A DNA stretch of 44,005 nucleotides. Source: Patescibacteria group bacterium. Lineage in GTDB: Bacteria; Patescibacteriota; Patescibacteriia; UBA9934. Both the position numbers and the translations under genes were made by a program. The notes below the pieces were generated by a model, which saw only the letters and a program-made list of their open reading frames with translations, ran no database searches and was not told the origin of the DNA. The DNA lies in contig JBBTSM010000008.1 of assembly GCA_038064675.1 (NCBI GenBank), forward strand, positions 167 through 44,171, given 5' to 3'. Below, piece by piece: positions 3,677 to 43,009 of the stretch (position 1 is its first letter; every line of letters begins with the position of its first letter).

Positions 3677-4095
3677 AGGCCGAAGAATTCTAAAGAATGA
3701 CGGAGAATCGTAAACTTGGACTTTTTATCAACCTGATCCTCGAGTTTGTCGAACGGATCCGCGACATCGATGTCTGCGATGGCATCACATTTGATACAGA
3801 CGATGTGGTGATGGTGATCTTGTTCCACGAATTCGTATCTCTGAACCTGATCATGGAAATAAATGGGGACGATAACGCCGGCCTCAACGAGGACCTCGAG
3901 CTCTCGATAGAGTGTGACCTTGTGGACCTCGGGGATATCAAATTTCTTGAGCCGACCTCGAATTTCGTCCACAGAAAACGGCTTCATATTCTTCGCGAAG
4001 ATCTCGAGAAGCGCTCTTCGAAGCTTCGTCATGCGAAAACCTTCTGCAGCAAGATTGTAGCGAAGCTCTGCGGTTCTGGGTGTTTCCAGTTTCAT
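3652..4095 (-). CDS. Fur family transcriptional regulator (Zur-like by context)
   Basis: Winged-helix N-terminus (TKLRRALLEIF...FSVDEI). Metal-site residues HHHHIVCIKC and a C-terminal CKSC pair. First gene of the metal-uptake operon. Start placed at ATG 4095 rather than the TTG at 4116 used by the ORF track. Confidence 0.85.
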   Translation of the reverse strand: MKLETPRTAELRYNLAAEGFRMTKLRRALLEIFAKNMKPFSVDEIRGRLKKFDIPEVHKVTLYRELEVLVEAGVIVPIYFHDQVQRYEFVEQDHHHHIVCIKCDAIADIDVADPFDKLEDQVDKKSKFTILRHSLEFFGLCKSCASL

Positions 4096-4109
4096 ACGCC
4101 ATCGACCAT

Positions 4110-4128
4110 AACGCAACTGAGTTGCGTT
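4110..4128. promoter_or_regulatory. perfect 19-bp palindrome AACGCAAC-TGA-GTTGCGTT just upstream of the Fur-family gene (candidate operator or hairpin)
   Basis: Read directly: 8-bp arms with a 3-nt spacer, ending 15 nt upstream of the ATG at 4095. A function is not demonstrated. Confidence 0.35.
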
Positions 4129-4226
4129 TGCAAGACCCCCTGTTCAAAACGCACACACCCAAACTCGCCGATAGTGTCTCGTTATCATTGCCGCCTCCAC
4201 ATCCATCCAAGGTCACCTCACAATCA

Positions 4227-4267
4227 GACCCCCTCCAACTCCCCCTTCGTAAGGGGGAGTGATGTCT
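4227..4267. repeat. palindromic repeat element, copy A (GACCCCCTCCAACTCCCCCTTCGTAAGGGGGAGTGATGTCT)
   Basis: It contains a 10-bp perfect stem ACTCCCCCTT/AAGGGGGAGT with a 3-nt loop (4238-4260). It is about 95% identical to a 41-bp block at 9328-9368. It lies directly after the comFC stop codon. Confidence 0.8.
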
Positions 4268-4268
4268 T

Positions 4269-4895
4269 TTATCCCTTGGCAATACTTATTCTTAAAATCT
4301 CCTCAACACCCGCATCGCGCAAAATGTCTTCAGCAGCACCCATCGTCGCTCCCGTCGTCTCAACATCATCAAAGATCATGATTCTCTTTGGAACAGCGAT
4401 TCCCGCTCTCAATGTAAACGGATTCTTTGTGAAACTTTTCTTTCTCAGATCATGCGACGTATTCGCTTGCGCAAACCATCGATGTTTTCGTTCGAGAAGA
4501 TCCACGCTCGGCAGATGAAGAAGCTCGCCGATTGCTCGAGCGCCGTCTTTTGCTTGATTAAATCCACGCATTCGCTCTTTCCAGGAAGACAGCGGAATTG
4601 GCACGATCGCCTCAATCTTCTTTGCTTCGATCACACTTTTCCAAGAAGCAGCCCTTGGCGCGATCAGACGCACGAGCCTCGCAAGACCCTCCTCGTCGCC
4701 GTCGTACTTCCATGCACAAATCAGTTTCCGAATCTTTGGGTTGGCATACGCAAACGGCGGACCATCGAGGGATGAATCCGCCGTGCACAACGCACAAAGT
4801 AGCGCCCCTTCTGTGCCGCAATTCACACAATATCGTGGGAATACGGCATCCCAAATCACACACCGTCCTTCCAGGTATATCCGTCCACCAGCCAC
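4269..4895 (-). CDS. comFC: ComF family protein (ComFC-type phosphoribosyltransferase-fold competence protein)
   Basis: N-terminal Cys pairs (CVNCG...CALC), the RGFNQA motif, and the PRTase motif IMIFDDVETTGATM. The start is a GTG at 4895 that overlaps the upstream gene by 40 nt. Confidence 0.85.
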   Translation of the reverse strand: MAGGRIYLEGRCVIWDAVFPRYCVNCGTEGALLCALCTADSSLDGPPFAYANPKIRKLICAWKYDGDEEGLARLVRLIAPRAASWKSVIEAKKIEAIVPIPLSSWKERMRGFNQAKDGARAIGELLHLPSVDLLERKHRWFAQANTSHDLRKKSFTKNPFTLRAGIAVPKRIMIFDDVETTGATMGAAEDILRDAGVEEILRISIAKG

Positions 4896-5440
4896 GTCGT
4901 TCCAGACTTCACAAGCGTGATAGTAATTGATTGATACTTGATCGTTGTGTTGCCCGGATCACCTTTCGACTCTTCACGCTGCGTGGTCATCGAGAGCACT
5001 GTTTGCGTAGACGACGCGCTCACGGTCTTTGGCGCTGTTACGACCAATGTAGAAACACCATAATACGATCCATCCGACGACGCACGCGATTGCTTTGCGA
5101 GTGTTTCGAGTTGCTTCTGAAAACTCGTCGTCGCCATCGGCAAAATGTCCTCAATGTTTGCCGCATCGGATTCCGACGAATAACTTCCTAAACGTTCCAC
5201 AAATGTTCGCGCAACCGTTGTTGCCGACGTTTCTTTCACAACAACTGGCGCTGGAGTTGTTGTCGTGTCAGTAGACCCTGTAGCCGTCACCGACCTGTCC
5301 TTCGACGTTGTCACCGTCGCCGCGGTTGGTGTTGTTGCTGTTGGAGTTATCGCCTTCTGTCTCCAAAACAGCACAAATGCTGCGAAGAGCAAAAGGACTG
5401 CAATAGCGAGAGCGATTTCGATTTTTGTTTTGCGTTCCAT
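4856..5440 (-). CDS. membrane-anchored protein: N-terminal TM, Thr/Pro-rich linker, about 115-aa C-terminal globular domain (VirB8-like candidate)
   Basis: ATG at 5440, 3 nt after the VirB4 stop. TM helix IEIALAIAVLLLFAAFVLFW. Linker TPTATTPTAATVTT...TTTPAP. The C-terminal domain ends ...GTTWLVDGYTWKDGV. The VirB8-like reading is inference from architecture and position only. Confidence 0.6.
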   Translation of the reverse strand: MERKTKIEIALAIAVLLLFAAFVLFWRQKAITPTATTPTAATVTTSKDRSVTATGSTDTTTTPAPVVVKETSATTVARTFVERLGSYSSESDAANIEDILPMATTSFQKQLETLAKQSRASSDGSYYGVSTLVVTAPKTVSASSTQTVLSMTTQREESKGDPGNTTIKYQSITITLVKSGTTWLVDGYTWKDGV

Positions 5441-5443
5441 ACA

Positions 5444-7363
5444 TTATGCATTTCGTTCTTCAGCCTGTTCTGCGGCCAAACGCTTCTTTTCTTTTTCAAT
5501 TTCGAGCAACTGCTGTGGATTGGTGGTAACGATTTGATCTTCGGTGTAACTTGCGACGATCTTGATTGCGGCGTGTTTTTGACCCGCAAAGAAAATACCT
5601 TCTCCAACAGCAGATTCGAGCAATAAATACTTCTCGCTCTGCGTGAGGTTGAATGTTTCTGCAATACGATCAACACCCGCCGGCGATTGTTTCATCAACA
5701 GCTGCAGCGATGAGTTCGTCACGATCGCCTGACCGTACGACGATCCCAAGAAGTCGTTTACATCCTGTGTGATCGTCGTCACCCCGAGGTAATATTTTCG
5801 AGCGCGCTTCACGAGAGCGAAAATAAACTTTGCAGAATCCTCATTCTGCATGAGCCACCACGCTTCGTCGATGACAAGAATACGCTTCTTGCGTTCCGAT
5901 CGGACGACGTTCCAAATGTAGTTGATGATGGTGTAAATCGCCATGGCTCGCAACTCGTCTTCAAGATCGCGAACCGAGAAAATAACGAGCTGATTGCGCA
6001 TTTCCACCGTGGTTGGCGAGTTGAGCAATCCAGAAAATGTTCCACTCGTGAACTTTTCCAAACGCGCCACCAAGTTGTCACCACCGTTCATGCCCTGCAA
6101 AACTTGAAGCAGGTCTTCGAGGATTGGATAATCAACAATTCCTTCCAGCGTCGTTAAATCGGGCGTAATGTCGCGCTTTGCGTACGATTCTAAGAGCGCA
6201 CGGTCCAGCAATGAATCTTCTTCTGGCGTAAAGCTCAAGGTTCCTTTTTCGCCCATTGGCTTGCCAATCATGATGCGAAGCAAGCCTTTAAGCGTAATGA
6301 CCGCGCTGCGCAACACATCGTCAACCGATGTTTCGTCACCTTTCGCGCGAGGAAGATCGAACGGGTTCACCTTGCTGTCCGACGCAAGCGACACGTTGAT
6401 GTATGTTCCGCCAACGGCATCCGACAGCTGGCGGTATTCCATTTCTGGGTCGATAACGATCACATCCACGCCCATCATCATGGAACGTAAAATTTCCAGC
6501 TTCACCGCATACGACTTTCCCGCACCAGATGTTGCGAACACCACCGAATTCGCGTTCTGCAAGCTGAAACGATCGAACAAAATCAACGAATTGTTGTGGC
6601 GGTTAATGCCGTATAAAATGCCGTTGTCGCTCGTGACGTCCGACGAAATGAACGGATACGACGACGCGATTGGCGACGTGTTCATGTTGAACGTAATCGC
6701 AAGCTCGTCGTTCAAGAGTGGCAATGTGGAGTTGAATCCTTGTTCTGTTTGGTAAAAACCACGCTTCGAATAAATGAGCTTCTGACCGAAGATTGCTTCA
6801 ATCTCCTCCGTTCGTTTGTCGAGCTCCTCAACCGTCTTTGCGTATAACGTCACGTAAAACGCAAACTGAAAGAAATGTTCAATTCCTTGAGTAAGGTCAT
6901 CACGAAGCTGCTCCACGTCGCGCAATGCGGTTTCGCGAATTGGATCACGAGGTTTGCCGGTTTCGTTGTCGGAAATGACCTGCGCCTCGAGCACACCAAC
7001 CTTGTTTCGCAACTGCTTCAAAATCACCTCCGGTTTGATGGGATAAAAGTACATCGCAATATCAATAGTGCTGTTGTAGTTGATGATTGGCGCACCCCAT
7101 CCAATGCCAACGTAGCGTGGATACGTCGTCACAAACAATGTCCGAACGTACATGTCGCCCAAATGCAAGTGCGCGGATGTTACTTCAAACGACGACGGCG
7201 CAATAAGATCGCGAACACTCACCGTTCCACGGCGATAAATGCGTTCTTCTTCAAGCGTGGTGCGTTCTTGCATTGCCCGCGCCTGCGCCTCCGAAATCGG
7301 TTTCGGCTGAAGGGTCACTGGAGCAACCTTTACGTCTTTGGGATTGTTTAAATCAAATGCCAT
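5444..7363 (-). CDS. virB4: VirB4/TrbE/TraC-type T4SS ATPase, central and C-terminal ATPase part
   Basis: Walker A FATSGAGKSY and Walker B ILVIDEAWW. Region IAPSSFEV...HLHLGDMYVRTLFVTTYPRYVGIGW is typical of Gram-positive VirB4 proteins. ATG verified at 7361-7363. Confidence 0.9.
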   Translation of the reverse strand: MAFDLNNPKDVKVAPVTLQPKPISEAQARAMQERTTLEEERIYRRGTVSVRDLIAPSSFEVTSAHLHLGDMYVRTLFVTTYPRYVGIGWGAPIINYNSTIDIAMYFYPIKPEVILKQLRNKVGVLEAQVISDNETGKPRDPIRETALRDVEQLRDDLTQGIEHFFQFAFYVTLYAKTVEELDKRTEEIEAIFGQKLIYSKRGFYQTEQGFNSTLPLLNDELAITFNMNTSPIASSYPFISSDVTSDNGILYGINRHNNSLILFDRFSLQNANSVVFATSGAGKSYAVKLEILRSMMMGVDVIVIDPEMEYRQLSDAVGGTYINVSLASDSKVNPFDLPRAKGDETSVDDVLRSAVITLKGLLRIMIGKPMGEKGTLSFTPEEDSLLDRALLESYAKRDITPDLTTLEGIVDYPILEDLLQVLQGMNGGDNLVARLEKFTSGTFSGLLNSPTTVEMRNQLVIFSVRDLEDELRAMAIYTIINYIWNVVRSERKKRILVIDEAWWLMQNEDSAKFIFALVKRARKYYLGVTTITQDVNDFLGSSYGQAIVTNSSLQLLMKQSPAGVDRIAETFNLTQSEKYLLLESAVGEGIFFAGQKHAAIKIVASYTEDQIVTTNPQQLLEIEKEKKRLAAEQAEERNA

Positions 7364-7366
7364 ACG

Positions 7367-8050
7367 CTAGAAATGGGTTTCCACACGCAACTTTCCAACG
7401 TCTACCAACTTCTCTGTGTCGTACACATCTGGGTTGTACGACGAGTAATACAGCTCAATGAGCCCCTGGGTATCAAGGAGCGCCACCTGTAAGCTCATGC
7501 TCCCCAAACCAGACGCAATTGTGGAAACCTGGCGCATGAGTGTTTCGCGACGAGCCTGAAAATTCTTTTCGTTCAGCTTAATAATCTTAGCCGGCGAAAA
7601 CGCGCTAGAAAGTTTTGTAAGGAAACCCTTGCCCTTATCGCTTCCTTCTGCAGGATCGTACGGCACAACCACAAAGAATCGCTTTTGCATGATTTGCCCA
7701 AGCTCTACAAGTTCCTTGATGAACGACGTATAATCGCGAATCTGCGTTCGAAGAAGCTCGTTATGAATGGTGTCTTCTTGCGCCTTCAAACTTGCAAGAT
7801 ATCCATCGACATTCATTCTGCGCGACTGAATCACCACCTGAAGCGGAAAATCCAGTCCATTCAAAAATTGCATGTACCCCTGAATAATTGCCTGCTGCTC
7901 GTCTTCACTTTTCAACGCAAAGTTAATACTCGACACCATCAACACCGCACGAAGCGTGCCGTCCTTCATCACAACACAATCCTCACGAATTTCAGCAATA
8001 TCCAAATATCGCTGTGTTGGCTGACCAGATTTTGGCTTTGCGTTTGCCAT
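7367..8050 (-). CDS. VirB4 N-terminal domain encoded as a separate ORF
   Basis: The sequence PTQRYLDIAEIREDCVVMKDGTLRAVLMVSSINFALKSEDEQQAIIQGYMQFLNGLDFPLQVVIQSRR resembles the N-terminal region of Gram-positive VirB4/TraE-like ATPases. It ends in TAG (7367-7369), in the same reading frame as the ATG at 7363. Confidence 0.65.
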   Translation of the reverse strand: MANAKPKSGQPTQRYLDIAEIREDCVVMKDGTLRAVLMVSSINFALKSEDEQQAIIQGYMQFLNGLDFPLQVVIQSRRMNVDGYLASLKAQEDTIHNELLRTQIRDYTSFIKELVELGQIMQKRFFVVVPYDPAEGSDKGKGFLTKLSSAFSPAKIIKLNEKNFQARRETLMRQVSTIASGLGSMSLQVALLDTQGLIELYYSSYNPDVYDTEKLVDVGKLRVETHF

Positions 8051-8052
8051 AG

Positions 8053-8499
8053 TTAGACATCTTCATCTGACGCGTACACACCGCCGGTGTTTACCACCAA
8101 TGTCAGTTCGTTCAGGCGTGATCGTTCGAGCGGCGCCTTTCGCACTGGCGGTGGAGCAACGTCTTCCTCAACCGTCTGAAGAAACATCCGAATGTCTGAA
8201 TCGCTCAATGTTTTATCCCAAATACGAAGGTGCGGTTTACGGAATGTCTGAATGAAATTCAACACAATAAAATGAAACGGCTGACCGTTTACCTTTGCAA
8301 AAGAAAACATCAGTCCCAGTGCAAGAATCGGCACACCGAGCGCGAGAACAATGATGAGATTAAGAAAGACGCGATAGATGACGAACTCCACAAGAAGCAC
8401 GCCAAGCATAATCAAAAACTGTCGCGCAGTAATTGGCCCGATAATCTTCGATTCAACATCGAGAAATTGCGGTACGACAAATTGATTCTGACCAGCCAT
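8053..8499 (-). CDS. PrgI family / VirB3-like small T4SS membrane protein
   Basis: The N-terminal signature VVPQFLDVESKIIGPITARQFLIML is followed by two TM helices. It lies immediately upstream of VirB4. Start moved to ATG 8499; the ORF track uses the TTG at 8505. Confidence 0.7.
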   Translation of the reverse strand: MAGQNQFVVPQFLDVESKIIGPITARQFLIMLGVLLVEFVIYRVFLNLIIVLALGVPILALGLMFSFAKVNGQPFHFIVLNFIQTFRKPHLRIWDKTLSDSDIRMFLQTVEEDVAPPPVRKAPLERSRLNELTLVVNTGGVYASDEDV

Positions 8500-8515
8500 G
8501 ACCAAAGTATATCAC

Positions 8516-10081
8516 CTAAAATCGCAATCGCTCATTCAGTGCGGACACGGCGCGAATCTCTGCCGGGCTCAAGCTTTCTTCACCGGCGCTACGGCGGCGC
8601 GTGGCGATTTCTGCAAGACCAACGCCTTGAGTAAGCGCGTCAGTCGTCATGAGCACATACAATTGATTCATCGGACTTTGACGCCACGCCTTCACACCCT
8701 TCACACGCTCTTCGTACGATTGCGATTCGATAGTTGAAAGAATATCCTCAATCTTCTGTGCTGCGTCTGCAGGAACCGTTGAAAGTCGTCGGAATTCCAC
8801 CGGCGTCATGGTCGCGAGCTCGTCAATAGGACCAACCAATCGTTTTACCGTTTGTACATCCGTCATCGGCCTCATCGTATGTTGTGGTGCGACAGAACCT
8901 ACCGTCAGCATCGGCTTCACTGGGACCGGCCTGCTCGCAACCGCAGCTTCCATGAGCTTCTCCTCCGGAATCGCCTGCGCTTGCTGAGCGGTCTCTTCCT
9001 TCACCGACCGCGCCAAACTCACCCGAGCATCCGGCAAAATCGGCTCAAGATGCTCCGACGATGCATCCTTGGTGATTGCCGCAAATCGCTTATCGAGAAC
9101 GTCATTTTTTGGTGGTGCGGATTGCTCCGTTTTGCCCACTGCCCCTTGCCCCTTGCCCTCCCCCGACGACACAACCTGCCTCGCCTTCTTCTCCGCCTCC
9201 TTCAACTCGCCCTTCCATGAATCATCGATATGACTCGTCGGCACAGGCGCTTTCGGCGCATTGATGATGGGAAGTTCCGAAGTAAGTTCGTGGGATGGGG
9301 AGAGCTCAAGAACTGTCCCGACCGCAGCGACCCCCTCCGACTCCCCCTTCGTAAGGGGGAGGGATGTCTCCGATTCTGATTTCGCAAACTGTTCTTCGAT
9401 TTCTTTTACCGCAACTTCGCCGCTGTTCACAGTTTCACCAACACCAAGTTGCCGACTTCCAGGCGCGCCCTGTTCCCCTCCACTAATCACATCAATCGTG
9501 TCTCGGCTTTCATCGATACCAGCAAGAAGCTTCTGCGCGAGTTCTGGTGACAATCCCAGGCCGCCGATCGTCTGGCCGCGCGAAAAAAATGTCAACGTGG
9601 ATTCCTTTGTTTTTTCCTTGTTCCAATATGCGTACAACAAGAATGCGCAACGTTTAATGAGCACTTCCGAAAAGTTCAGCTCCAATTTCTCATCGAGCTG
9701 CGCAGCAAATGTCTCTGCGCTCATCTTCGTTTTTCCAACACGTGATTTTGGATACTTACTCAAATCCCCTCCCCATTCAGTAATCTGCGCCGCGACACCA
9801 GGAATGTATTCTTCCAAAGGCAACAAACGGAATCCCACAACATCGCACGCAATTTTCTGTGCACGAGGAAGCTCAACGCCGAACGCCTCCGCAAGCATCG
9901 CCGGAAATTGGTCCACGGTTAACGCTCCGTCTAATACCGCGTCAGTCAAATCGAGCAACTCAATCGCACGATCCGTCGGCAGTGCAAACTTTTCCAGAAT
10001 AGCTCGAAACACGGTCATCACTGAGCCGTCTGCAAGGAATGCCTGTACTGGCGGAATTTTGATGAGGTCTGCAATGGCCAT
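8516..10081 (-). CDS. hypothetical protein (521 aa) embedded in the T4SS-like operon
   Basis: A long uninterrupted ORF with ATG at 10081, 6 nt after the VirB6-like stop and 16 nt before the PrgI-like start. It has a structured N-terminal region of about 200 aa, a low-complexity middle and a structured C-terminus. I recognise no family. Confidence 0.8.
   Translation of the reverse strand: MAIADLIKIPPVQAFLADGSVMTVFRAILEKFALPTDRAIELLDLTDAVLDGALTVDQFPAMLAEAFGVELPRAQKIACDVVGFRLLPLEEYIPGVAAQITEWGGDLSKYPKSRVGKTKMSAETFAAQLDEKLELNFSEVLIKRCAFLLYAYWNKEKTKESTLTFFSRGQTIGGLGLSPELAQKLLAGIDESRDTIDVISGGEQGAPGSRQLGVGETVNSGEVAVKEIEEQFAKSESETSLPLTKGESEGVAAVGTVLELSPSHELTSELPIINAPKAPVPTSHIDDSWKGELKEAEKKARQVVSSGEGKGQGAVGKTEQSAPPKNDVLDKRFAAITKDASSEHLEPILPDARVSLARSVKEETAQQAQAIPEEKLMEAAVASRPVPVKPMLTVGSVAPQHTMRPMTDVQTVKRLVGPIDELATMTPVEFRRLSTVPADAAQKIEDILSTIESQSYEERVKGVKAWRQSPMNQLYVLMTTDALTQGVGLAEIATRRRSAGEESLSPAEIRAVSALNERLRF
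9328..9368. repeat. palindromic repeat element, copy B, lying in-frame inside the 521-aa CDS
   Basis: GACCCCCTCCGACTCCCCCTTCGTAAGGGGGAGGGATGTCT has the same 10-bp stem and 3-nt loop as copy A (39 of 41 nt identical by my alignment). On the minus strand it is translated as TSLPLTKGESEGV within the disordered linker. Confidence 0.8.
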
Positions 10082-10087
10082 ACGGAA

Positions 10088-13000
10088 CTATGTTGTTGGC
10101 GGCGGCGTCGGAGGCCCAGGAGTGTACCGTGTTCCGACTGGCTCTCCCGATACTCGAGCGGCCCCCTCAGCTGCAGCAGCCGCACGAGCCGCGGCGCCAG
10201 CAGCACCACCGGCATCGCTATATGCTCTGGCTGCCTGTTCGGGTGATCCTGGAGGAGAAAGGAAGCGGGGATTAATCCGAGACGCTGGAGCTGTCGCAGG
10301 GCTTCCTCCTAATGATGGCCGGCGAACTGGAACAACAGGACGAGGAACCGAAGCATTGGCTGGTGTCGTCCCTGGGCCACGAGTCTGCGTAATGACCGGA
10401 GGGTTTGACGCTGGAGCTGGAGCTGGAGCAGTAGCTGCGGCAGCACCAACAACAGCACCCGCGGCGGCACCAACAGCGGCAGAGGCCCCACCGCTACCAC
10501 GCTGTGCATATCGGTCACCCGTTCCAAGCTCATCGGCGACACGTTTTAACGTCTTCTTTCGGTCATCCGACAAATCTGTTCTCCCCATTTCGGCATGAAC
10601 CGCACGCTCCATCGTCTTCAACGCCACTGCAGCGCGCGCTCCATCATCACCCCCACTCGAAGATGTGCTTTGCAATTTCTTTACCGCTTCAAGGTTCACC
10701 TTTGACGTCGCAAGAGCGGAAGCTGCATTCGCCGTGTTGCCAATAGCGCCATCAAGATGACGAACGCTCTTGGAATCCGCCTCGAGCATCGCCACCCCAC
10801 GCTGGTATTCGGCAGACTGCGGATCGGCTGCGGCCTGACTCATCGTAGAAACGAACGAATCTCCAAGAACACTGTTCGGATTAACCGCTGTCTCGATACC
10901 AGCGTCGTCGATCGCTCCATTCAACAATGAAGAAGCTGCGCTACCATAAACCTTCGCGCCATAATCCGCAGGAACAGACGATTTTACTGCCTCACGAACC
11001 GCATCTCGACGAGTAGTCCCAACGCCGTCTGCATCTGTTTTTGAAACCGCACCCGCTCTGACCAACGTTCCCATGCTCTGCTTCCGTGTTGCAGAATCAC
11101 GAATGCTTTCTGCAGTGATAGTACCAATCATGGCATCGCGCTGCTGAATAGTTCCCTTTCCATGAGAAACGACATCATCCCAAACGGTAATATCCTTACC
11201 CTTGTCATCACGACGAGAAACCTGCTTCTTATAGAACGCAAGCGTAGCAGGATCCTTAATGGATTCCGTGGAAAGCATTCCAAGATTCGCTCTACCGGTC
11301 TTCTCTTGCTCCGTCCAAACCTTCTTGCGCTCCTCGTCATCTTTCAGCAAGTGCATGTTTGCGAACTTCGAATCCTGGAAACGGTCCTTCTCGGCGTCGT
11401 CCATAAGATCCTTCCCTGCGCCATCCAAGAACTTCGCAGAATTTTGGAACAAAAGGTTGTGCTGTCTCTGCGCCTCAGTCTTCGCGCCAGCAGCGTCCAA
11501 AATGGCTCCAGTCACTGGATGCTTCGTTCCAACCAAAGACTTCTCCTGGTTTGCCTTAAATTTATCGCGACGCTTCTGATCTGTTCCGAAGTTCTTCAAG
11601 TACGCGTTCTTCTCGTCAGGAGGAAGCGACTCGAAAGAGTTGCCACCAATAGCGGCGGCTGCATCGATCCGTGCCATCTGGTCGTCTGTGCGATCCTTCA
11701 GTTGCTCTGCACCCAGTTTTGCATCGTCCTTCATGGTGTGCTTTGCGCCCTTCACGATATTCCCTCCAGCTGCGGCAACCGCATTTCCAGCCCACCCAAG
11801 ACCCTTAACACCAGCGGCGGCAGTCCCGGCTTTCGCCAATCCCATTCCAACACTCTTCGTAAAGCCCGGAGCGATTCCTGCCATATGCGCCGCACCCTTC
11901 TGTGCCTTATCGTTTACCCAGGCGCGCTCTTTTTTGAATCCTCCAGCGGCTCTAAATGGGCTCTTCCCAAGCCACTTCGCCATGCTCAAACCGTTCTTCT
12001 CACTCAACATGCTGCTCGCAAATCCACCCATGCCAGATGCCGCAGACGATGCCTGCTGCATACCGGCAAGAAGAATGGCGAGTGCAAGGAACATGCCCAA
12101 GAAGTTATCCAAAGAAAACATCTCCAGCGGAATACCAGCGTCCCCCTGAGAATCTGGCATTGGAAAATCTTCCGTCTGTGCAAGGTTCGATCCCGACGAC
12201 GCGGCGAGCGCGAGCCAGAGGAAGAACACCATCATCGGACCAAACGTCAGCGCGCTTGAAAACTTACTCCACCATTGTGTGTATGTTGATCCAGCGCTAT
12301 GGAATACGTCTTTCACCCCAATCATGAAAAACGCCATTGGCGACATGATGATGAGAATCCACAAAATGACGATGCGCCACACAAACGCCGCAGCAAGAAG
12401 GAACATCACGCCGAGAATTGCGAGCATCACAATGAACTGCAGATATGCGCCCATCAAAAATTCAAATGCCTCAAGGCCCGTTCCTGTCTCATTAATTTTA
12501 TCGATGAAATCGGATCCGAACTGACCAAAGGTATTCAAGCTTAGCATCGATGCAAAGTTTCCTGCGGCAATAGAAACAATAGCGTTCACAAACGTAAACA
12601 TCACCACCTGGCTAACATCAATCAAGAACCCGCAAATGAGCTTGCTGAAGTTCACTAAAACAATAGCGATGAAGAGCTTTGGCAACTGCTGGATCCAATT
12701 CGCCTTTTCGTATCCAATAATCGTCATGATCGCGATCACCATCAAAATAACCACCACGAACATATTCACCACATCCCGAACAAGTGACCAACCAAGGTTC
12801 GTAATGTGACTATTGTAAAAACCGTTGTAGCCAAGAACCGGAATTACCACGACCTGAATAATCAATAAAATCAGCTTTCCGACCGCACCGGTAATCACCT
12901 GAATGATTCCCGCTAGGGTAATCATTGTTGTATCAATTGGGTTGTTCAAGAATTGCGTGAAGAGTTCTCCACCAGCATGGGTGTAATGGAATGGAATGCC

Positions 13001-13093
13001 CAAAACCAGTACCGCCATCATCAGAGCGGTTACGGTTTTGTGTGTCGAGCACCAATTCGTGAATCGCCGAACAAGCTCCGTGAGCTTCCGCAT
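10088..13093 (-). CDS. VirB6/TrbL/TcpH-like polytopic membrane protein with a long soluble C-terminal extension and an Ala/Pro-rich tail
   Basis: About 8 TM helices lie in the first roughly 350 aa, followed by a hydrophilic region of about 600 aa. It is the first gene of the operon that contains VirB4 and PrgI-like genes. Start placed at ATG 13093 (MRKLTELV...), because the longer ORF to 13318 overlaps dprA. Confidence 0.65.
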   Translation of the reverse strand: MRKLTELVRRFTNWCSTHKTVTALMMAVLVLGIPFHYTHAGGELFTQFLNNPIDTTMITLAGIIQVITGAVGKLILLIIQVVVIPVLGYNGFYNSHITNLGWSLVRDVVNMFVVVILMVIAIMTIIGYEKANWIQQLPKLFIAIVLVNFSKLICGFLIDVSQVVMFTFVNAIVSIAAGNFASMLSLNTFGQFGSDFIDKINETGTGLEAFEFLMGAYLQFIVMLAILGVMFLLAAAFVWRIVILWILIIMSPMAFFMIGVKDVFHSAGSTYTQWWSKFSSALTFGPMMVFFLWLALAASSGSNLAQTEDFPMPDSQGDAGIPLEMFSLDNFLGMFLALAILLAGMQQASSAASGMGGFASSMLSEKNGLSMAKWLGKSPFRAAGGFKKERAWVNDKAQKGAAHMAGIAPGFTKSVGMGLAKAGTAAAGVKGLGWAGNAVAAAGGNIVKGAKHTMKDDAKLGAEQLKDRTDDQMARIDAAAAIGGNSFESLPPDEKNAYLKNFGTDQKRRDKFKANQEKSLVGTKHPVTGAILDAAGAKTEAQRQHNLLFQNSAKFLDGAGKDLMDDAEKDRFQDSKFANMHLLKDDEERKKVWTEQEKTGRANLGMLSTESIKDPATLAFYKKQVSRRDDKGKDITVWDDVVSHGKGTIQQRDAMIGTITAESIRDSATRKQSMGTLVRAGAVSKTDADGVGTTRRDAVREAVKSSVPADYGAKVYGSAASSLLNGAIDDAGIETAVNPNSVLGDSFVSTMSQAAADPQSAEYQRGVAMLEADSKSVRHLDGAIGNTANAASALATSKVNLEAVKKLQSTSSSGGDDGARAAVALKTMERAVHAEMGRTDLSDDRKKTLKRVADELGTGDRYAQRGSGGASAAVGAAAGAVVGAAAATAPAPAPASNPPVITQTRGPGTTPANASVPRPVVPVRRPSLGGSPATAPASRINPRFLSPPGSPEQAARAYSDAGGAAGAAARAAAAAEGAARVSGEPVGTRYTPGPPTPPPTT

Positions 13094-13101
13094 ACGAGAC
13101 G

Positions 13102-13122
13102 AAGTATACCATGCGTATACTT
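13102..13122. promoter_or_regulatory. 21-bp perfect palindrome AAGTATAC-CATGC-GTATACTT in the 58-bp divergent region between the T4SS-like operon and dprA
   Basis: Read directly: 8-bp arms and a 5-nt spacer, 9 nt from the VirB6-like ATG and 30 nt from the dprA ATG. The operator role is inference. Confidence 0.35.
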
Positions 13123-13151
13123 TTAGGACTTCCCCATTTTCAACCCACGTC

Positions 13152-14237
13152 ATGACGTCGCCATACACCATCGCCTTCGCAAATGTTCCGTACTTCGGTC
13201 CACGATCGAACGCGATTCTTTTTGAATACTTTGATGATCCAGAAAAAGCGTGGAACGCTGACATCGACGAGCTTATTGCATTCGGCATCAAACCACATGC
13301 TGCGTCGAGATTTTCCAACTTTCGAAAGCATCACGATCCATCTGAGTTTATCGAAACGATGGTGAAGCACGGCATTCGTGCCATCACGATTCGCGACGAC
13401 GAGTACCCTGCAATGCTCAAAACCATCCACACTCCACCCACATTATTGTTCATCAAAGGTGTACTCCCATCCATCAAAAAGAAACACCTCGCGATCGTTG
13501 GCTCTCGTCATGCGACGGCGTACGGAATCCGAATCGCGAAAAAACTTGCAGGCGAATGCGCAAACGCAGGGATTGTCGTCGTCAGCGGATTGGCATACGG
13601 GATTGATGAGGCTTCCCATCGAGGGACGCTTGATGCGAATGGAATTACCCTTGCCGTCCTTGGCTCTGGATTCCTCGGAATCGATAATCCGCGACATCAG
13701 AAACTCAGCGATGCGATCCTCAGAGGAGGAGGCGCGATGATTTCCGAATTTGGATTCACGATGCCGCCGCACTACTACAATTTTCCTATTCGGAATCGAA
13801 TCGTTGCGGGAATGTGCCACGGAACCCTTGCGATCGAAGCCGGAATTCCATCGGGAACACTCTTAACAACTACGTCTGCGACCAATGAGAATCGGGAGGT
13901 TTTTGCGATTCCCGGCATGATCGACTCCGCGATGAGCAAAGGAACCAACGAACTTCTCAAAAACGGCGCTCATCTCGTCACCGAAGCACGAGATATTTTC
14001 CTCGCCTTTGGCATGGACGTGGCACCCCAAGCCAGTGCCACTGCCTTTCTTCCCATTGGTCGGCCACCAGACGAGATTGCCCTCTTTGCCCAACTTGGTG
14101 CCGAACCGATTCATGTCGATACCGCTATCGAGAAGGCTGGACTATCAACCACCGCTGGATCTATAGCGCTCACGGGACTCGAACTCCTTGGAGTGATTGA
14201 GGATACTGGAGGGAAACAGTTTGTGAGAAAGAGCTAA
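13152..14237 (+). CDS. dprA: DNA-processing protein DprA
   Basis: Rossmann-like DprA core: LAIVGSRHATAYG, VVSGLAYGIDEASHRG, AVLGSG, FPIRNRIVAGM, LAIEAG..SGTL. Start placed at ATG 13152. Confidence 0.9.
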   Translation: MTSPYTIAFANVPYFGPRSNAILFEYFDDPEKAWNADIDELIAFGIKPHAASRFSNFRKHHDPSEFIETMVKHGIRAITIRDDEYPAMLKTIHTPPTLLFIKGVLPSIKKKHLAIVGSRHATAYGIRIAKKLAGECANAGIVVVSGLAYGIDEASHRGTLDANGITLAVLGSGFLGIDNPRHQKLSDAILRGGGAMISEFGFTMPPHYYNFPIRNRIVAGMCHGTLAIEAGIPSGTLLTTTSATNENREVFAIPGMIDSAMSKGTNELLKNGAHLVTEARDIFLAFGMDVAPQASATAFLPIGRPPDEIALFAQLGAEPIHVDTAIEKAGLSTTAGSIALTGLELLGVIEDTGGKQFVRKS

Positions 14238-14572: not shown

Positions 14573-16852
14573 ATGTCCAAACTCCTCATCGTAGAGTCTC
14601 CAACCAAGGCCAAAACCATCACCAAATTCCTTGGAAAGGAGTACAAGGTCATCTCGTCATTTGGCCATATTCGCGACCTCCCAAAGAAGAGCACAGCAGT
14701 AGACGTCAAAAATGGGTTCGCACCAACCTACGAGATTCCCGTCGATAAGAAGGATAAAGTGAAGGCACTCAAAGATGCCGCAAAAGGCGTAGACGACATC
14801 TATCTCGCAACCGACGAAGACCGCGAAGGAGAAGCCATCGCCTGGCATATTGCCGAGGTTTTGAAGCTGGACCCGGCAACAGCAAAGCGCATCACGTTCC
14901 ACGAAATCACCAAATCCGCCATTGCCGAAGCACTCGACCATACCCGCCACATTGATATGCGGATGGTAGACGCGCAGCAAACTCGACGCATCCTCGACCG
15001 CCTCGTCGGCTACGAGCTCTCCCCGCTCTTGTGGAGCAAAGTGCAGCGAGGACTCTCTGCTGGCCGCGTGCAATCAGTCGCTGTCCGATTAGTTGTTGAG
15101 CGTGAACGTGAGCGCCAAGCATTCAAAACCGATGAGTACTGGAGCGTTGAAGCAATTCTCTCAAAATCAAACACCGAGTTTCCTACCAAACTTGTTGCAA
15201 TCGGCGACAGAAAGATTGACAAACTCGACATCACAACACAAGCGGAATCCGACGCCGTTGTTGCCGCGGTACGCGATGCGGATTTTGTCGTGAAGAGTAT
15301 TGAGAAAAAGGCAGCAAGCCGCAAAGCTCCAACGCCACTCACCACGTCAACGATGCAGCAAGAGGCGTACAACCGCCTTGGCATGAGCGCAAAACAAACG
15401 ATGACGCTTTCCCAGAAGCTCTACGAAACTGGTCGCATTACGTACATGAGAACAGACTCCACTAACTTGAGCGAACAGTTCATCGCCGCAACGCAGGAAT
15501 ACGTAAAGGCGCAGTGGGGCGAAACGTTCGTTACGGGCGGTATCCGATACCAAACCAGCAAGAAAGGCGCACAGGAGGCGCACGAGGCCATTCGTCCAAC
15601 CAACGTAAATGCAACGCCAGAAAGCCTTCGTTCCGAGCTCGAACCTGGCATGTGGAAACTGTACGATCTTCTTTGGCGCCGCACCGTTGCGTCGCAGTTG
15701 CCGAGTGCAAAGCTTGAGCGCACCGCAATCGATTTCACCGCAAACAATCACACGTTCCGCGGCAATGGCAGCATCGTCGTCTTTGAAGGCTTTATGAAAG
15801 TGTGGCAGGCATCGGAGGATAAAATCCTTCCAACACTCACTGAAGGCGAGAACATCGGCAAAGCCGTCAGCGTTACACCAGAACAACATTTCACCGAACC
15901 TCCAGCGCGCTATTCCGATGCGTCGTTGATTAAAATCATGGAAGAGTACGGCATTGGCCGCCCATCAACCTACGCGCCAACCTTGAACACTATTGAAACC
16001 CGAGGCTACGTGCTACGCGACGACGGAAAACGGCTGTATCCTTCCGACATCGCGTTCGTTGTTACCGATCTCTTGAAGGAGCATTTTCCGCAGATTGTCG
16101 ATTACGATTTCACGGCAAGCATGGAACGAAAGCTCGACCAGATTGCGGAAGGAGAGGAAAAGTGGAAGCAGGTGCTCGGCGATTTCTACGGCCCATTCCA
16201 CGAAGCGATCGTTGGTAAAGGCGCCGAACTGACTCGCGAAACCATCATGAAAGTGACGGAAATTGGCATCGATCCCGAAAGCGGGAAAATGATCGTGGCG
16301 CGTACTGGTCGCTTTGGTCCGTTCGTGCAAATCGGCGAGCTCTCGCCAGACAAGAATGCAGAGAAACCAAAGCGTGCGAGCCTAGAGAAGAATCAGACCA
16401 TCGACACGCTCACGCTCGAGCAAGCCCTGAAGCTCCTCTCACTCCCCCGCGTTCTCGGCAAACACACCAATGGGGACGAGATTGTGGCGAACGTTGGACG
16501 CTTTGGTCCGTATCTCAAATGCGGCGCGATCAACATCACGCTGCCGCCAGAACATCATCCAGCAACCGTTACTCTCGAAACCGCTATCGCGCTGTGTACC
16601 GAGGGCGTCGCAAAGAAAATCAAGGCGATGACGCCACTTGCGGAACTTGGTGTTGAGCCGGAAACGAAGGCGAATATCGTCATCAAAGATGGTCGCTACG
16701 GCGCGTATGTGACCGACGGGAAAACAAATGCAACGATTCCGAAGGGCACCGATCCTACGACCGTCACACTGCACGATGCAATCGATCTCCTTGTAAAAAA
16801 ACGCAAAGCACCGAAGAGCCGGTGGAAGCGCAAAGCATCGAATGATGAATAG
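14573..16852 (+). CDS. topA: DNA topoisomerase I
   Basis: TOPRIM N-terminus MSKLLIVESPTKAKTITKFLG. DEDREGE acidic motif. Active-site region ITYMRTDS. C-terminal repeats of the GRFGPF/GRYGAY type. Confidence 0.97.
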   Translation: MSKLLIVESPTKAKTITKFLGKEYKVISSFGHIRDLPKKSTAVDVKNGFAPTYEIPVDKKDKVKALKDAAKGVDDIYLATDEDREGEAIAWHIAEVLKLDPATAKRITFHEITKSAIAEALDHTRHIDMRMVDAQQTRRILDRLVGYELSPLLWSKVQRGLSAGRVQSVAVRLVVERERERQAFKTDEYWSVEAILSKSNTEFPTKLVAIGDRKIDKLDITTQAESDAVVAAVRDADFVVKSIEKKAASRKAPTPLTTSTMQQEAYNRLGMSAKQTMTLSQKLYETGRITYMRTDSTNLSEQFIAATQEYVKAQWGETFVTGGIRYQTSKKGAQEAHEAIRPTNVNATPESLRSELEPGMWKLYDLLWRRTVASQLPSAKLERTAIDFTANNHTFRGNGSIVVFEGFMKVWQASEDKILPTLTEGENIGKAVSVTPEQHFTEPPARYSDASLIKIMEEYGIGRPSTYAPTLNTIETRGYVLRDDGKRLYPSDIAFVVTDLLKEHFPQIVDYDFTASMERKLDQIAEGEEKWKQVLGDFYGPFHEAIVGKGAELTRETIMKVTEIGIDPESGKMIVARTGRFGPFVQIGELSPDKNAEKPKRASLEKNQTIDTLTLEQALKLLSLPRVLGKHTNGDEIVANVGRFGPYLKCGAINITLPPEHHPATVTLETAIALCTEGVAKKIKAMTPLAELGVEPETKANIVIKDGRYGAYVTDGKTNATIPKGTDPTTVTLHDAIDLLVKKRKAPKSRWKRKASNDE

Positions 16853-16899: not shown

Positions 16900-19800
16900 T
16901 TATGCCGCACGTTTCATCGCCCGTTCTGCACGCCGCAGAACACCATCCATCGCTTCTTGAACATTAAGTCGGCCTTCAGCGGCTAGGCGCGCCATCTCAT
17001 CTCGCTCACTCCCGGTTAACGATCGAAGGTTTGAAAGAACCTGTTCGAGCCCCGTGACCGCAGCGGTATAGCCGTACGCAGATCCGATCATCGCCACAGC
17101 CTCCGCAGTATTCATCACCCTACCGCCCAAACTTCCATTCGCACGAATTCCCTGCATCGCCTCCTCCCATGTTTCGCGGAATACCGTTGCAACACGAGCC
17201 ACAAGGCCAGTGTCGCCGCCTCCTGATACCGCTGTTTCAAATCGCTTTCGGAAGTCGCCAACGCCGTGCGCAAGGTTTGTACCGATATTGAAGGGAAGTT
17301 TTGAGAGCAATCGGAGTGCTGGCGATCCTCGACGGCCCGGAGCCTCGAGTACTCGAACCGATTGTTCAACGATACCGGCAAGCTCTCTGCTTCGTGCAAC
17401 AGCATGTTTCCGGGTTTGTTCTGAGTACTGTTCAGTGAGTGCGCGAACCGATTCATGCAATCTCGTTTTCATTTCATTCGATAGCGGCTCACCATCTCTT
17501 GTTGTCGCCGTGGAAATCGCACGATCAAGCCGGGCAGCAACATCAAGATTTGCCGTATAAATACGCTCTGGATCCCCGGCGGCGCGTTGTAGTGTTTTCG
17601 CGTTTTCTCCCATGGCATCTAAAATATCTGCCGTAAGTAGCGCACGAGCATTCTGATCGCCAAACGATTCTGGGAGATATTGTGGAACGTCCGCAAAGGC
17701 TTTCAAGCCAAAGAACTTGCCAAGCACACCGATGACTCCACCGGCAGTTCGACGAGATATTTCTGGCGTTGGCGCGAATTCGGTTCGCGCAGCAGGAGTC
17801 TCCACCACAGCAGGAGCCACAGTAGCATCACCACCAAAGATTCGACCGACGGTATTTCTCAGCGAACGTGACCACGATGCCACGCGATCTTCTGCGTGCG
17901 TTTCACGAGGCACCTCAACTGGAGCTTCAATAGGAATTTCAACGCGAGCTGGCGCCGGAGCAACGGAATCGATCACAGGCTCCGGTCGAGCTACTGGTCG
18001 AACATCAACCGCTACTGGACGAACCGGAGGAACAGATTCAGCAGACGATGGACGAGGAGCTTCAACGCGAGGCACCGGTCGTGCTTCTGGAGCGGGTGCC
18101 GGGGCCTCGGCTCCGCCACCAAAGAATCCAGCAAATGGATCGGCGCTTTCGTTTGATGGAGCCGAAGCGGGGCGTACTGGCGCTGATTCTGCGCGGGACG
18201 TGGGAGCAGACTCGAATCGAACAGGAGCAACCGGCGCAGCGGTACCGGCTGGACGCGGTGGACGTGGGACTTCGGATCGAGGACGGTCAATGAGAGATTC
18301 TGGAGAAGCCGCCGAAGGAAGAACGATATTTCGACGAACCGGGACAAGAGGCCTTGGTGCATTTGGATCCACGGGGAATACGCCTGCAAGAATTTGCTCG
18401 ATCTCGGAGAGGCCTTCCCCTGGAGCAGAAGCGGCCGACGTCGCAGCGGGAGCCGATACCGACGCAGCAGCTGGAGCTGAATCAGCTTCCACGGAAGGCG
18501 CGGGAGCCGCATCCGGCGTGCGAGGAGCATCGCCAGCCGCGCTGTATGCCGGAACGTTTTCCCGAACATGACTCGCGTCGGCCACCGGAGAATCCTCGTC
18601 TTCGCCCTCTTCCTCGGCGACAAACATCGACAAAGAGCCCTCAGCTCCAGCAACAAATGAACCAACCTCCAGAGTCTGATGTTCATCAGAAGCATGTTCT
18701 TCTCCAACATCGGCGCTTTCTACAGCAAAGTGCTCAACAGCCGCACGATCGTCTGACGAAAGCTCAACGCGCTCTTCGTGCTCCTCAGGAATAGCAACGA
18801 AAAACTCTCGAGGAATCTTCCCTTGTTTACTCAACTCTCTTGCGATTCCATTATTCTCATCCAACACCCACTGTATATAACGTCCAAAAATTCGCACGTG
18901 CGTCTGCGCGTTTGCCCAGTCGCCAATTGGCCTAAGCAAAGCTGAAGGAACTCCCGAAAGCGCCTTGGGGCCCACTGTCCAATATCCCTTAAAGAACTCG
19001 TGGAGCTTCTGTTTCCGATCTGATTGAGACGTGTCCGAGCCCATTGCATTCATCGCTCCGCTCCACGCATCCCGCTCACGACGCTTCCATTGGAAATACC
19101 CTTTCATTGTTCGTAAAACATCTTTAACGTCAATATTTGCCTCTACAGCGGCTTCTCCACGCTTCCCCAACAATATATCCTCCGTCTCTGTCAGGCGATC
19201 CCGAGCCTGCTCCAACGATGCAATCGCCATACGAGCAATAGAAACGTCCGTAACAAAATTCCCAAGCTCGTCATCGCTCATGGTCTTCCCCGACCGAAGG
19301 ACGCGACGAAAATTCTGAAGAGATATGGAAGGCTTCCAGAACCGTGCATTCCGCACATCCCAAAATACGTCTTCTTCAAGCAGACGCACAAAATTTAACT
19401 GAGGAGTTTGAGGTAACGACCGTCGCTCTTCACGATCTCGAGCAGCTCGCTGTCGCTGATCTTCCCGTCCACGACGACGAAGTGCACGAAACACCTCCGT
19501 ATGCGCAAGCATGTCAAAATCCATACGATGTTCCGCCGAAACCATTGCCACAAACTCCGCGTCCCCTTCCTTCACTTCGCCAGGACCGTACTTTTCTTCC
19601 AAAAATACTCCTCGATCTCCAATATCCGTATCCGAATTCCATAATTGGTGTGTTCGCGCAAGCGTGTTTCGCCAAATGTGGACAACCTCATGAAGACGTG
19701 CAGGCAACGCGGTCTCCGATGCCTCAATATATTCTTTTACTCGTTCCTCAAGAGTCCTCATCCTTCCATCAAATGCTGCACGCTCGGTGCGTACTCCGGC

Positions 19801-21222: not shown

Positions 21223-21235
21223 ACATCTTCAACAA

Positions 21236-21592
21236 TTATTCCTTTTGTGCGGCCTCAGCCTTTCGAAGTTCTTGAACAATGCCGCTGATATCGCCCATAA
21301 AGGAAGTATCGAGTTGCGACTGAATCGCTGCGTACTTCTCCATAACGATACGAAGCTTTGCCACAGTATCAGCAACGTCGGCGCGCGCAGCCTTTTCCAC
21401 AGACGTATCAAGAACCGCCGCAAGACGAGAAAGCTGGTCAAGCCGAAGTTCAGGCAACAGTGCCGCCCATGCTTCTTTTTCTTGCTGCGGCATACTGGAC
21501 ACCACCAATGCTTCAGCAAGTTGAATCGCAAGCCCTCGCGCCTCTTGAATAAGCGCGGATTCCGAAAACTGTGGTTTCGCCGTGGATGCCAT
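21236..21592 (-). CDS. hypothetical small helical protein (118 aa), co-oriented 13 nt upstream of the 1440-aa gene
   Basis: ATG at 21592 (MASTAKPQFSES...). The longer ORF to 21757 would read through the intergenic inverted repeat and gives non-protein-like sequence. No family recognised. Confidence 0.6.
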   Translation of the reverse strand: MASTAKPQFSESALIQEARGLAIQLAEALVVSSMPQQEKEAWAALLPELRLDQLSRLAAVLDTSVEKAARADVADTVAKLRIVMEKYAAIQSQLDTSFMGDISGIVQELRKAEAAQKE

Positions 21593-21653
21593 GAAGTTAT
21601 TATACCGCATTCCAAAATACGGTGATTCTGAACCTGAGCTGACCTTAGATGGC

Positions 21654-22101
21654 GCTCGACGAGCCAGAGCTGGGCGAGGAGAGTGTGGGAGGGAGAGATC
21701 GGAAGAAAGTAAACCTTTGGGTGGGTTGGGACGGAAATGGTGGCAAAAAGATATCATCGAAGAGCGGGGGTATTCGATTTCAAACAGGGTGCTTGGTAAT
21801 GCGAATGCTTCGCAAACAGAAATCGTTGGTCCACGCTAACGATCTACGAGGTCGCAAATAACGCCGCCTACGATCGAAGATCACGCATTTTCGAATCAAT
21901 TTCACTTTTCATAGATTTCCGGCTCAGATCACATGCTGTTGCCCAGTTTTAAAACCCAAAAAACGAGGGTATCGTTTTCTGTCGCAGTACCCCGTACTCT
22001 CCGTTCTGTTCCGTCCCGTCCCAATCCCTCAAAGAATCAGGCTGGATTCACCCCCCCCTCCGACTCCTCACTCTCCTCGTCCAGCTCGGGACTCGTCGAA
22101 C
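21654..22101. repeat. about 448-bp non-coding element bounded by imperfect inverted repeats
   Basis: The core arms are 21654-21685 (GCTCGACGAGCCAGAGCTGGGCGAGGAGAGTG) and 22069-22101 (CACTCTCCTCGTCCAGCTCGGGACTCGTCGAAC). Weaker complementarity extends to about 21740 and from about 22001. Only short, implausible ORFs lie inside. Confidence 0.65.
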
Positions 22102-25291: not shown

Positions 25292-25292
25292 A

Positions 25293-26072: not shown

Positions 26073-26123
26073 AGAATGAAAGAAGTATAACAAAAAATCT
26101 CCAGTCTTGCGACGGAGATTTTT

Positions 26124-26200
26124 TGGTTGCGGGGGCCGGATTTGAACCGGCGACCTTCGGGTTATGAGCCCGACGAGCTGCCTGGCTGCTCTACCCCGCG
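26124..26200 (-). tRNA. initiator tRNA-Met (CAU) with encoded CCA
   Basis: The reverse complement reads CGCGGGGTAGAGCAGCCAGGCAGCTCGTCGGGCTCATAACCCGAAGGTCGCCGGTTCAAATCCGGCCCCCGCAACCA. It shows a C1-A72 mismatch, three G-C pairs closing the anticodon stem, anticodon CAT, and a GGTTCAAATCC T-arm. It is near-identical to E. coli tRNA-fMet. Confidence 0.97.
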
Positions 26201-43003: not shown

Positions 43004-43009
43004 ACGCAA

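Follow-up and report, generated by a model that had tools for sequence, protein, structure and literature searches.

A type IV secretion system-derived operon ending in comF on a Patescibacteria contig

The locus described here raises two questions: what a type IV secretion system (T4SS) operon does when no conjugation genes are found with it, and why its last gene is the competence gene comF. The operon and the neighbouring dprA occupy positions 4269–14237 of a 44-kb stretch (hereafter the window) of the Patescibacteria contig JBBTSM010000008.1. Absences reported for the window apply to the window only. The original prediction, made from these letters alone, was a DNA-uptake or host-contact machine linked to comFC and dprA. 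We found that the operon derives from a T4SS but does not belong to a conjugative element, and its genes identify it, by comparison with relatives, as a T4SS of the Patescibacteria clade (derived from the mating-pair formation type MPF-FATA) in the arrangement of class ABY1. The function that we consider the probable one is that of a chromosomal host-contact T4SS of ABY1 with which ComF is co-produced, while DNA would still enter via ComEC and type IV pili.

The operon consists of seven tightly packed minus-strand genes (4269–13093), with positions and spacing as first predicted. In the order of transcription, they are virB6-like (10088–13093; it opens the operon in this lineage), the gene of a 521-aa protein, here p521 (8516–10081), prgI/virB3-like (8053–8505), trsD-like (7367–8050; 227 aa, the N-terminal region of VirB4), the virB4 ATPase gene (5444–7363; the C-terminal two thirds including the P-loop domain), virB8-like (4856–5440; a membrane-anchored protein of 194 aa) and comF, or comFC (4269–4895). 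The gaps, counted from virB8-like back to virB6-like, are 3, 3, 2, 10–16 (depending on the PrgI start) and 6 nt, and comF overlaps virB8-like by 40 nt.

One genome per species was scanned for relatives, and the best 80 of at least 595 were analysed as related loci (L001 onward). Where named, these 80 loci belong to Uhrbacteria, Magasanikbacteria, Falkowbacteria or Patescibacteria metagenome-assembled genomes. The identity of VirB4 across the relatives declines gradually from 97% to 68%. The related loci place the lineage of the window with Uhrbacteria-like Patescibacteria of class ABY1. An origin from Saccharibacteria was ruled out, as the named related loci are Uhrbacteria-like (ABY1). Wherever all seven genes were detected, they were colinear and on one strand (45 of 45 related loci).

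VirB4 matched NF045971 (CD1110-family VirB4) with 340.8 bits at a cut-off of 325, and PF19044 (TraG P-loop) with an E-value of 9e-28. Its best matches are Firmicutes and Mollicutes families. The TrsD-like protein gave weak matches to N-terminal regions of VirB4 (NF045975 positions 102–233 and NF045971 positions 2–104) and a match to NF041427 (TrsD) under the cut-off of that family (E 5.9e-6). The two open reading frames (ORFs) had been predicted as N- and C-terminal parts of VirB4. Both ORFs were confirmed, but they do not mark a break: trsD-like is separate from virB4 in all 80 related loci. The best 120 listed homologues of VirB4 (76–99% identity) are 596–687 aa long, mostly 630–675 aa, and those with a name are from Patescibacteria. 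Over the 80 loci, each of the three stop codons and each of the three relative frames occurs at the junction between trsD-like and virB4, and the spacing varies. Because the homologues of the C-terminal part are short, the junction varies in stop, frame and spacing, and three loci carry inserted genes at this point, the two-part VirB4 is the ancestral arrangement of TrsD plus VirB4 and not a pseudogene. The same arrangement is reported for Patescibacteria and for plasmid pGO1 in the passages of PMC12102498 that we cite. The homologue lengths and the variable junction led us to reject both a pseudogene and recoding as readings of the in-frame TAG that separates the two VirB4 parts.

The three loci with additional genes at this junction carry 4.9–6.8 kb on both strands (L047:1130–5990, L053:192–6963 and L072:4326–10001). 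Ten ORFs of these stretches were scanned, with no Pfam match. Hence, the otherwise rigid operon can be interrupted at the trsD/virB4 junction.

The three membrane proteins were supported to different degrees. The assignment of PrgI/VirB3 was borne out by a match to PF12666 above the cut-off (34.9 bits vs 27) and by two transmembrane (TM) segments at 21–39 and 50–68; prgI was found in 77 related loci. The VirB6-like protein shows about 7–8 TM helices in its N-terminal ~400 aa, followed by a hydrophilic low-complexity C-terminal half of ~600 aa. Profile hidden Markov models supported the predicted VirB6 assignment only in relatives: 5 of 61 orthologues matched PF04610 (TrbL/VirB6; best E 1.8e-5), the sole recurrent Pfam match, and the window protein itself matched nothing in Pfam or NCBIfam. 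Five more orthologues matched pLS20_p028, CD3337/EF1877, Mbov_0396 or MMCAP2_0566, four NCBIfam families of polytopic membrane proteins of conjugation in Gram-positive bacteria or Mollicutes. A profile search against PDB sequences gave no match. The gene holds the first position in 60 related loci. As 7–8 TM helices and a long hydrophilic tail fit the 'extended VirB6' type described in PMC12857230, the first gene probably encodes an extended VirB6-like protein.

The 194-aa protein had been predicted to be TM-anchored, and this was confirmed. It has an N-terminal TM helix, a disordered Thr/Pro-rich linker of ~45 aa and an NTF2-like alpha+beta domain. The window protein has no Pfam match, while 4 of 59 orthologues matched PF04335 (VirB8) and others NTF2-like families. 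Structure prediction added a VirB8 fold. The AlphaFold2 (AF2) model, based on an alignment of 36 sequences, had a mean predicted local distance difference test (pLDDT) score of 85.9. The best Foldseek matches of the model were mostly VirB8 homologues, namely CagV (6iqt; E 5e-6, TMt 0.71), TrwG, PrgL, TcpC and DotI, with E-values between 5e-6 and 1e-3. On the basis of these model matches, the protein is assigned as a VirB8-like subunit.

The 521-aa protein, p521, had been called an orphan, which it is not. A profile search at E<=1e-3 returned 2,596 cluster representatives, and the gene sits between virB6 and prgI in 74 related loci. No TM helix was detected. The AF2 model (mean pLDDT 74.8) has two all-helical domains (about 1–200 and 415–521) with values near 90 or above, joined by a disordered linker. 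No usable match was obtained in Pfam (32 members searched), by sequence profile against PDB or by Foldseek against PDB and BFVD. The protein represents a large unannotated core family and is a fixed member of the operon. Helix-hairpin-helix-like motifs (GLGLSPELAQKLL) were an impression only, backed by no tool.

The last gene has the features of comF(C). The protein matched TIGR00201 with an E-value of 2e-20, but with 73 bits vs a 233-bit cut-off. Cys23, Cys26, Cys34 and Cys37 are invariant across 71 orthologues, and an RGFNQA motif and the phosphoribosyl pyrophosphate (PRPP) loop DDVxTTGxT are conserved in the 71 sequences. The predicted protein combines the N-terminal four-Cys zinc finger with a phosphoribosyltransferase-like domain that carries the PRPP-binding loop. 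ComFC binds to single-stranded DNA (ssDNA) and connects transport to DprA, according to the passages cited from PMC9005727.

The placement of comFC in the operon with a 40-nt overlap was confirmed, and the linkage is kept in relatives. In 63 of the 64 loci with enough sequence, comF lies downstream of virB4 on the same strand; the linkage spans Uhrbacteria, Magasanikbacteria and Falkowbacteria. comF could be placed in an ORF in 64 loci, and 61 of these had an ORF of 180–216 aa called at the VirB8-like position. The reading frames of comF and virB8-like overlap in 39 of the 54 loci counted for overlap, most commonly by 31 nt. Taken together across these loci, comF is a fixed part of the operon module, and the conserved 31-nt overlap implies selection on coupled translation. 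In the one informative locus that makes an exception, L059, comF was not detected past VirB4, and two large DUF5667-containing proteins (1274 and 819 aa; L059:12678–18969) take its place after the VirB8-like gene.

The position of comF could also be a frozen accident that means nothing for function. On this explanation, comF, a housekeeping competence gene, would by chance have come to lie, in the ancestor of ABY1, 3' of an operon that is essential and highly expressed, and operon inertia would have kept it there. Genomes of ~1 Mb contain many compact mixed operons, which counts for such an origin. ComF also diverges much faster than VirB4 (25–40% vs 68–83% identity beyond the closest loci L001–L003), and L059 keeps the operon with no comF detected after its VirB8-like gene. 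Moreover, comF is not linked to the T4SS in other Patescibacteria classes in the account that PMC12102498 gives in the passages cited. The arrangement is found in 63 of 64 loci of three groups despite reshuffled flanks, however, and the conserved overlap implies selection on coupled translation, both of which argue against inertia. We regard a frozen accident as quite improbable.

Genes of DNA processing also occur further downstream in relatives. The genes recG and radA lie downstream of comF in about 16 related loci. In ~15 loci (L014, L019, L021, L023, L027, L033, L036, L039, L040, L043 and others), a set of genes was observed 1–8 kb past comF. It comprises a 173-aa membrane protein, recG, radA on the opposite strand and one or two fusions of T4SS_pilin with VanY, the VanY part being a D-Ala-D-Ala carboxypeptidase. 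None of this set was found in the window. A 273-aa ORF on the plus strand (3697–4518) is antisense to fur and comF and has no family match; it is almost certainly not a gene.

Is the operon part of a mobile element? The absence of a relaxase, VirD4, VirB11, an integrase and an attachment (att) boundary had led to the prediction that it is not conjugative, and within the 44 kb this was borne out. Pfam scans of every long window ORF gave no relaxase, VirD4/TcpA coupling protein, VirB11 or integrase, and no att-like repeats were found in the window. The sole tRNA, tRNA-Met at 26124–26200, is 13 kb from the operon, and an Rfam scan of the window returned tRNA only. On one side, the operon is flanked by fur-znuA-ABC-yibEF; on the other by dprA-topA, relA/spoT, parB-parA, a class II aminoacyl-tRNA synthetase and more housekeeping genes. 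The downstream synteny with fur-znuA-ABC-yibEF is kept in many of the closest loci (L001–L006, L009 and L020), and among relatives the flanks on both sides are reshuffled while the operon and comF persist. The G+C content is even across the window, with no anomaly, and the GC skew is negative throughout. The operon is judged not to be mobile because of the housekeeping flanks, the even G+C content, the lack of relaxase, coupling protein and integrase, and the conserved synteny. It is an ordinary operon of the core chromosome for this lineage.

An alternative is that the operon belongs to an integrated element and serves conjugation or mobilisation, with the relaxase, coupling protein and boundaries either outside the window or too divergent to be recognised. 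Relatives by component are the conjugative MPF-FATA systems (pGO1 Trs, pCF10 Prg, the CTn2 CD1110 family and the integrative and conjugative element of Mycoplasma). The window operon resembles these in its VirB4, which belongs to NF045971 above the cut-off and is closest to the CD1110 family of Firmicutes conjugative transposons. The resemblance extends to the split into TrsD- and TrsE-like proteins as in pGO1, to PrgI, to a VirB8-fold protein of the PrgL/TcpC kind and to a polytopic membrane protein, probably of the VirB6 type, whose orthologues match conjugation membrane families. The authors of PMC12102498 allow, in the text cited, for 'very different relaxases'. Unlike the conjugative systems, however, the window has no relaxase, coupling protein, oriT, integrase or mobile-element context, and the operon is vertically inherited. 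It also carries comF and p521, neither of which the cited part of PMC12102498 lists for the conjugative systems. Housekeeping genes extend over 30 kb beyond one end and 4 kb beyond the other without an integrase or att-like repeats, the G+C content is uniform, and the chromosomal synteny is conserved across relatives while VirB4 identity falls gradually from 97% to 68%. In addition, relaxases were reported in 103 Patescibacteria genomes only, and rarely near virB4, in the cited results of PMC12102498. A conjugative function is thus very improbable.

The closest known system is the one described by Quinonero-Coronel et al. 2025, Microb Genom (PMC12102498). The passages cited here report a Patescibacteria VirB4 clade related to MPF-FATA and chromosomal Patescibacteria T4SSs with homologues of TrsD, PrgI, VirB6 and VirB8, the last almost only in ABY1. 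VirB2-like pilins are present in many members, not all, and relaxases are nearly absent. The same passages place comF, recG and radA near the T4SS in ABY1 and link comF to the T4SS only in ABY1. The window operon agrees with this clade in being chromosomal and relaxase-less, in its MPF-FATA-related VirB4, in the separate TrsD-like gene beside virB4 and, as in ABY1, in PrgI/VirB3, a probable VirB6-like protein, a VirB8-like protein and comF. It differs in having no adjoining VirB2-like pilin array, VirB1-type hydrolase, recG or radA, and in the divergent placement of dprA-topA beside virB6 in this sublineage. Accordingly, the system and the co-localisation of comF are already published, as the cited text makes clear, and the window adds refinement, not discovery. 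What it refines is the identity of the 194-aa protein, which has a VirB8 fold, the split of TrsD and VirB4, which is ancestral, p521 as a large unannotated core family, the quantified coupling of comF and the local adjacency of dprA. The translational overlap of comF and virB8-like and p521 as a fixed member go beyond what the cited passages of that paper contain.

The second competence gene of the prediction, dprA (13152–14237, plus strand), was found as predicted, 58 bp from the start of virB6-like and with a palindrome in between. DprA matched TIGR00732 with 217 bits at a cut-off of 191, PF02481 with an E-value of 1e-66 and PF17782, the C-terminal winged helix, with 1e-9. The predicted protein has both the Rossmann-like DNA_processg_A domain and the C-terminal winged helix of DprA. 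Conservation of the whole comFC-T4SS-dprA arrangement in relatives had been set as a check. It held for comF (63 of 64 loci) and failed for dprA, which adjoins virB6 in 2 of the 51 loci with upstream sequence (L001 and L003). In L048 and L054, dprA is 3.7–3.9 kb from virB6, with the Der GTPase gene (der), an LCP-family gene and pth in between. As the adjacency is limited to two loci and dprA forms a unit of its own with topA (14573–16852), the adjacency is a lineage-specific local rearrangement and does not speak for a shared module. Membership of dprA in the module was ruled out on the same grounds.

The 58-bp divergent spacer between virB6-like and dprA (13094–13151) contains a perfect 8-nt inverted repeat, AAGTATAC-5 nt-GTATACTT, at 13102–13122. 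A perfect 8-nt inverted repeat occurs in 0.6% of spacer shuffles (chance about 0.006). Half of the palindrome is conserved in the closest locus, L001, and it is lost in L003. Each arm reads TATACT on its own strand, and the palindrome may represent back-to-back -10 boxes or an operator. At the other end of the operon, a G+C-rich hairpin with a 10-bp stem (4238–4260, minus strand) begins 8 nt past the comF stop. It would probably mark where the operon's transcript ends (3'), although the minus strand shows no U-tract after it. Promoter and terminator scans gave nothing beyond shuffled expectation.

The commonest upstream neighbour of virB6 among the 51 loci is an M23 peptidase (21 loci). The window encodes a 512-aa M23 peptidase on the minus strand at 26727–28265, 13 kb from the operon. 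Its M23 domain and, at the C-terminus, a domain of 99 aa (44% identity) recur in the M23 protein directly upstream of virB6 in the relatives, and it is a candidate VirB1-type cell-wall hydrolase that was displaced by 13 kb in this lineage.

What, then, would the machine do? The operon would descend from monoderm conjugation machinery of the MPF-FATA type. The extended VirB6-like channel protein, VirB3/PrgI and the bitopic VirB8-like protein would form a translocon in the cytoplasmic membrane, with TrsD and the VirB4 ATPase as a two-piece motor and p521 as a clade-specific soluble helical protein of the operon. Such a machine may be assembled for contact with host cells and move macromolecules across the single-membrane envelope. 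ComF, as the fixed and usually translationally coupled last gene product, would bind ssDNA as a partner of the ComEC uptake pathway and be made along with the machine. Co-production could then switch on the handling of incoming single-stranded nucleic acid at host contact. Entry of DNA via ComEC and type IV pili, with the T4SS giving access to host material, is ranked above the T4SS as an import channel because of the genetics of Saccharibacteria and the presence of ComEC in ABY1. In the saccharibacterium Ca. Southlakia epibionticum, where the T4SS was first shown to be essential, transposon sequencing (Wang et al. 2023, PMC10633639) found comEC, comF and dprA to be dispensable, and genomes of an ABY1 genus encode both ComEC and type IV pili (PMC11809585).

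Three points weigh against a host-contact T4SS with merely co-produced ComF. The machine is incomplete in the window, where no VirB2-like pilin, VirB1-type hydrolase or coupling protein adjoins the operon. No pilin Pfam matched the scanned window ORFs, the small ORFs not being exhaustively scanned, and neither a T4SS_pilin-VanY profile built from related loci nor a search for cluster-6 homologues gave a match in the window. The VirB6-like protein, as described above, lacks a profile match of its own. Finally, translational coupling suggests that ComF is tied to the T4SS more closely, possibly physically, than by co-regulation alone.

An alternative is that the T4SS itself imports nucleic acid ('reverse conjugation'). 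TrsD-VirB4 would pull ssDNA or RNA of the attached host through the VirB6/VirB8/VirB3 translocon, and ComF would receive it at the cytoplasmic face for DprA, RecA, RadA and RecG or for salvage nucleases. By analogy, the machine would be a functional counterpart of H. pylori ComB or crenarchaeal Ced. This model is kept alive by the rigid overlap of comF and virB8-like and because recG, radA and dprA were repeatedly recruited to the vicinity of the operon. The coupling is near-invariant, and recG and radA (~16 loci) and dprA (the window, L001 and L003) were recruited in separate sublineages. The lack of a relaxase or coupling protein nearby, weak matches of VirB4 to the DNA importers CedB and CedD, and p521, which is soluble, without recognised function and a fixed member of the operon, also speak for import. 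Patescibacteria do not synthesise nucleotides, and a 2026 preprint describes feeding on host RNA with T4SS-like tubes (10.64898/2026.06.21.733656).

Several points count against import. The scores of CedB and CedD are far under their cut-offs, and dprA adjacency is limited to 2 of 51 loci. That comEC, comF and dprA are dispensable in S. epibionticum although its T4SS is essential (PMC10633639) speaks against a core role that depends on ComF. With the canonical route of ComEC and type IV pili present in ABY1 (PMC11809585), a new channel is not needed for ComF. Moreover, the link of comF and T4SS is restricted to ABY1 in the cited passages of PMC12102498. We consider import through the T4SS rather unlikely.

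The two analogues were also compared directly. H. pylori ComB is, like the window operon, a T4SS without relaxase, VirD4 and VirB11 but with VirB3-, VirB4-, VirB6- and VirB8-type parts, the VirB6-type part being a probable one in the window, and H. pylori too uses ComF and DprA. ComB is a diderm system, required for transformation in experiments, that includes the pilin ComB2 and ComB7, ComB9 and ComB10. In contrast, no proteins of these types and no VirB7-, VirB9- or VirB10-like proteins were found in the window. An operon that joins comB to comF is not known to us from H. pylori. Nor is there an affiliation at the sequence level, since the window VirB4 best matches families of Firmicutes and Mollicutes. 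ComB moves DNA into the periplasm only, and ComEC performs the membrane step, according to the part of PMC13395361 cited; monoderm T4SS classes lack an outer-membrane core, according to that of PMC12102498. Ced (CedA/A1/A2/CedB) shares with the window operon a VirB4/HerA-related ATPase, which in Ced drives relaxase-free intercellular import of DNA, and is a conceptual precedent only. The CedB match was marginal (44.5 bits vs a cut-off of 700), no CedA-like proteins were found, and the domain of life and the envelope differ.

The host-contact T4SS with co-produced ComF therefore remains the favoured function. The more specific version of import, in which the ABY1 T4SS was turned into a host nucleic-acid importer with ComF and p521 as its cytoplasmic receiving end, is unlikely. 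If it were true, ComF would be a T4SS accessory instead of or besides a ComEC partner, and among monoderms the system would be the first 'reverse conjugation' machine, by which these auxotrophs could acquire nucleotides. Patescibacteria account for a large part of bacterial diversity, and their T4SS is, to our knowledge, the only one known to be essential for the growth of its bearer. The rigid, overlapping link of comF in ABY1 is one of few genomic hints to the cargo of this T4SS.

Several other genes of the window were recorded. A giant ORF of 3063 aa (33818–43009, minus strand) has a weak CBM_4_9 match as its sole Pfam match. Its C-terminal ~250 aa are ~43% identical to the L009 member of a family of large proteins, and this family adjoins virB6 upstream on the same strand in L059, L060, L066, L079 and L080. 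The product of the giant ORF may, by this similarity, be a T4SS-associated surface protein. Between topA and relA/spoT, a low-complexity charged protein of 1440 aa and a protein of 173 aa are encoded on the minus strand (16900–21757), neither with a Pfam or NCBIfam match. The genes parB-parA lie at 24323–26234. As tRNA-Met (26124–26200) overlaps the 5' end of the longest parA ORF, the start of parA is probably further downstream. Since parAB genes are usually near the origin, the same may apply to the T4SS locus, for which an ori-proximal position is reported in other classes of Patescibacteria.

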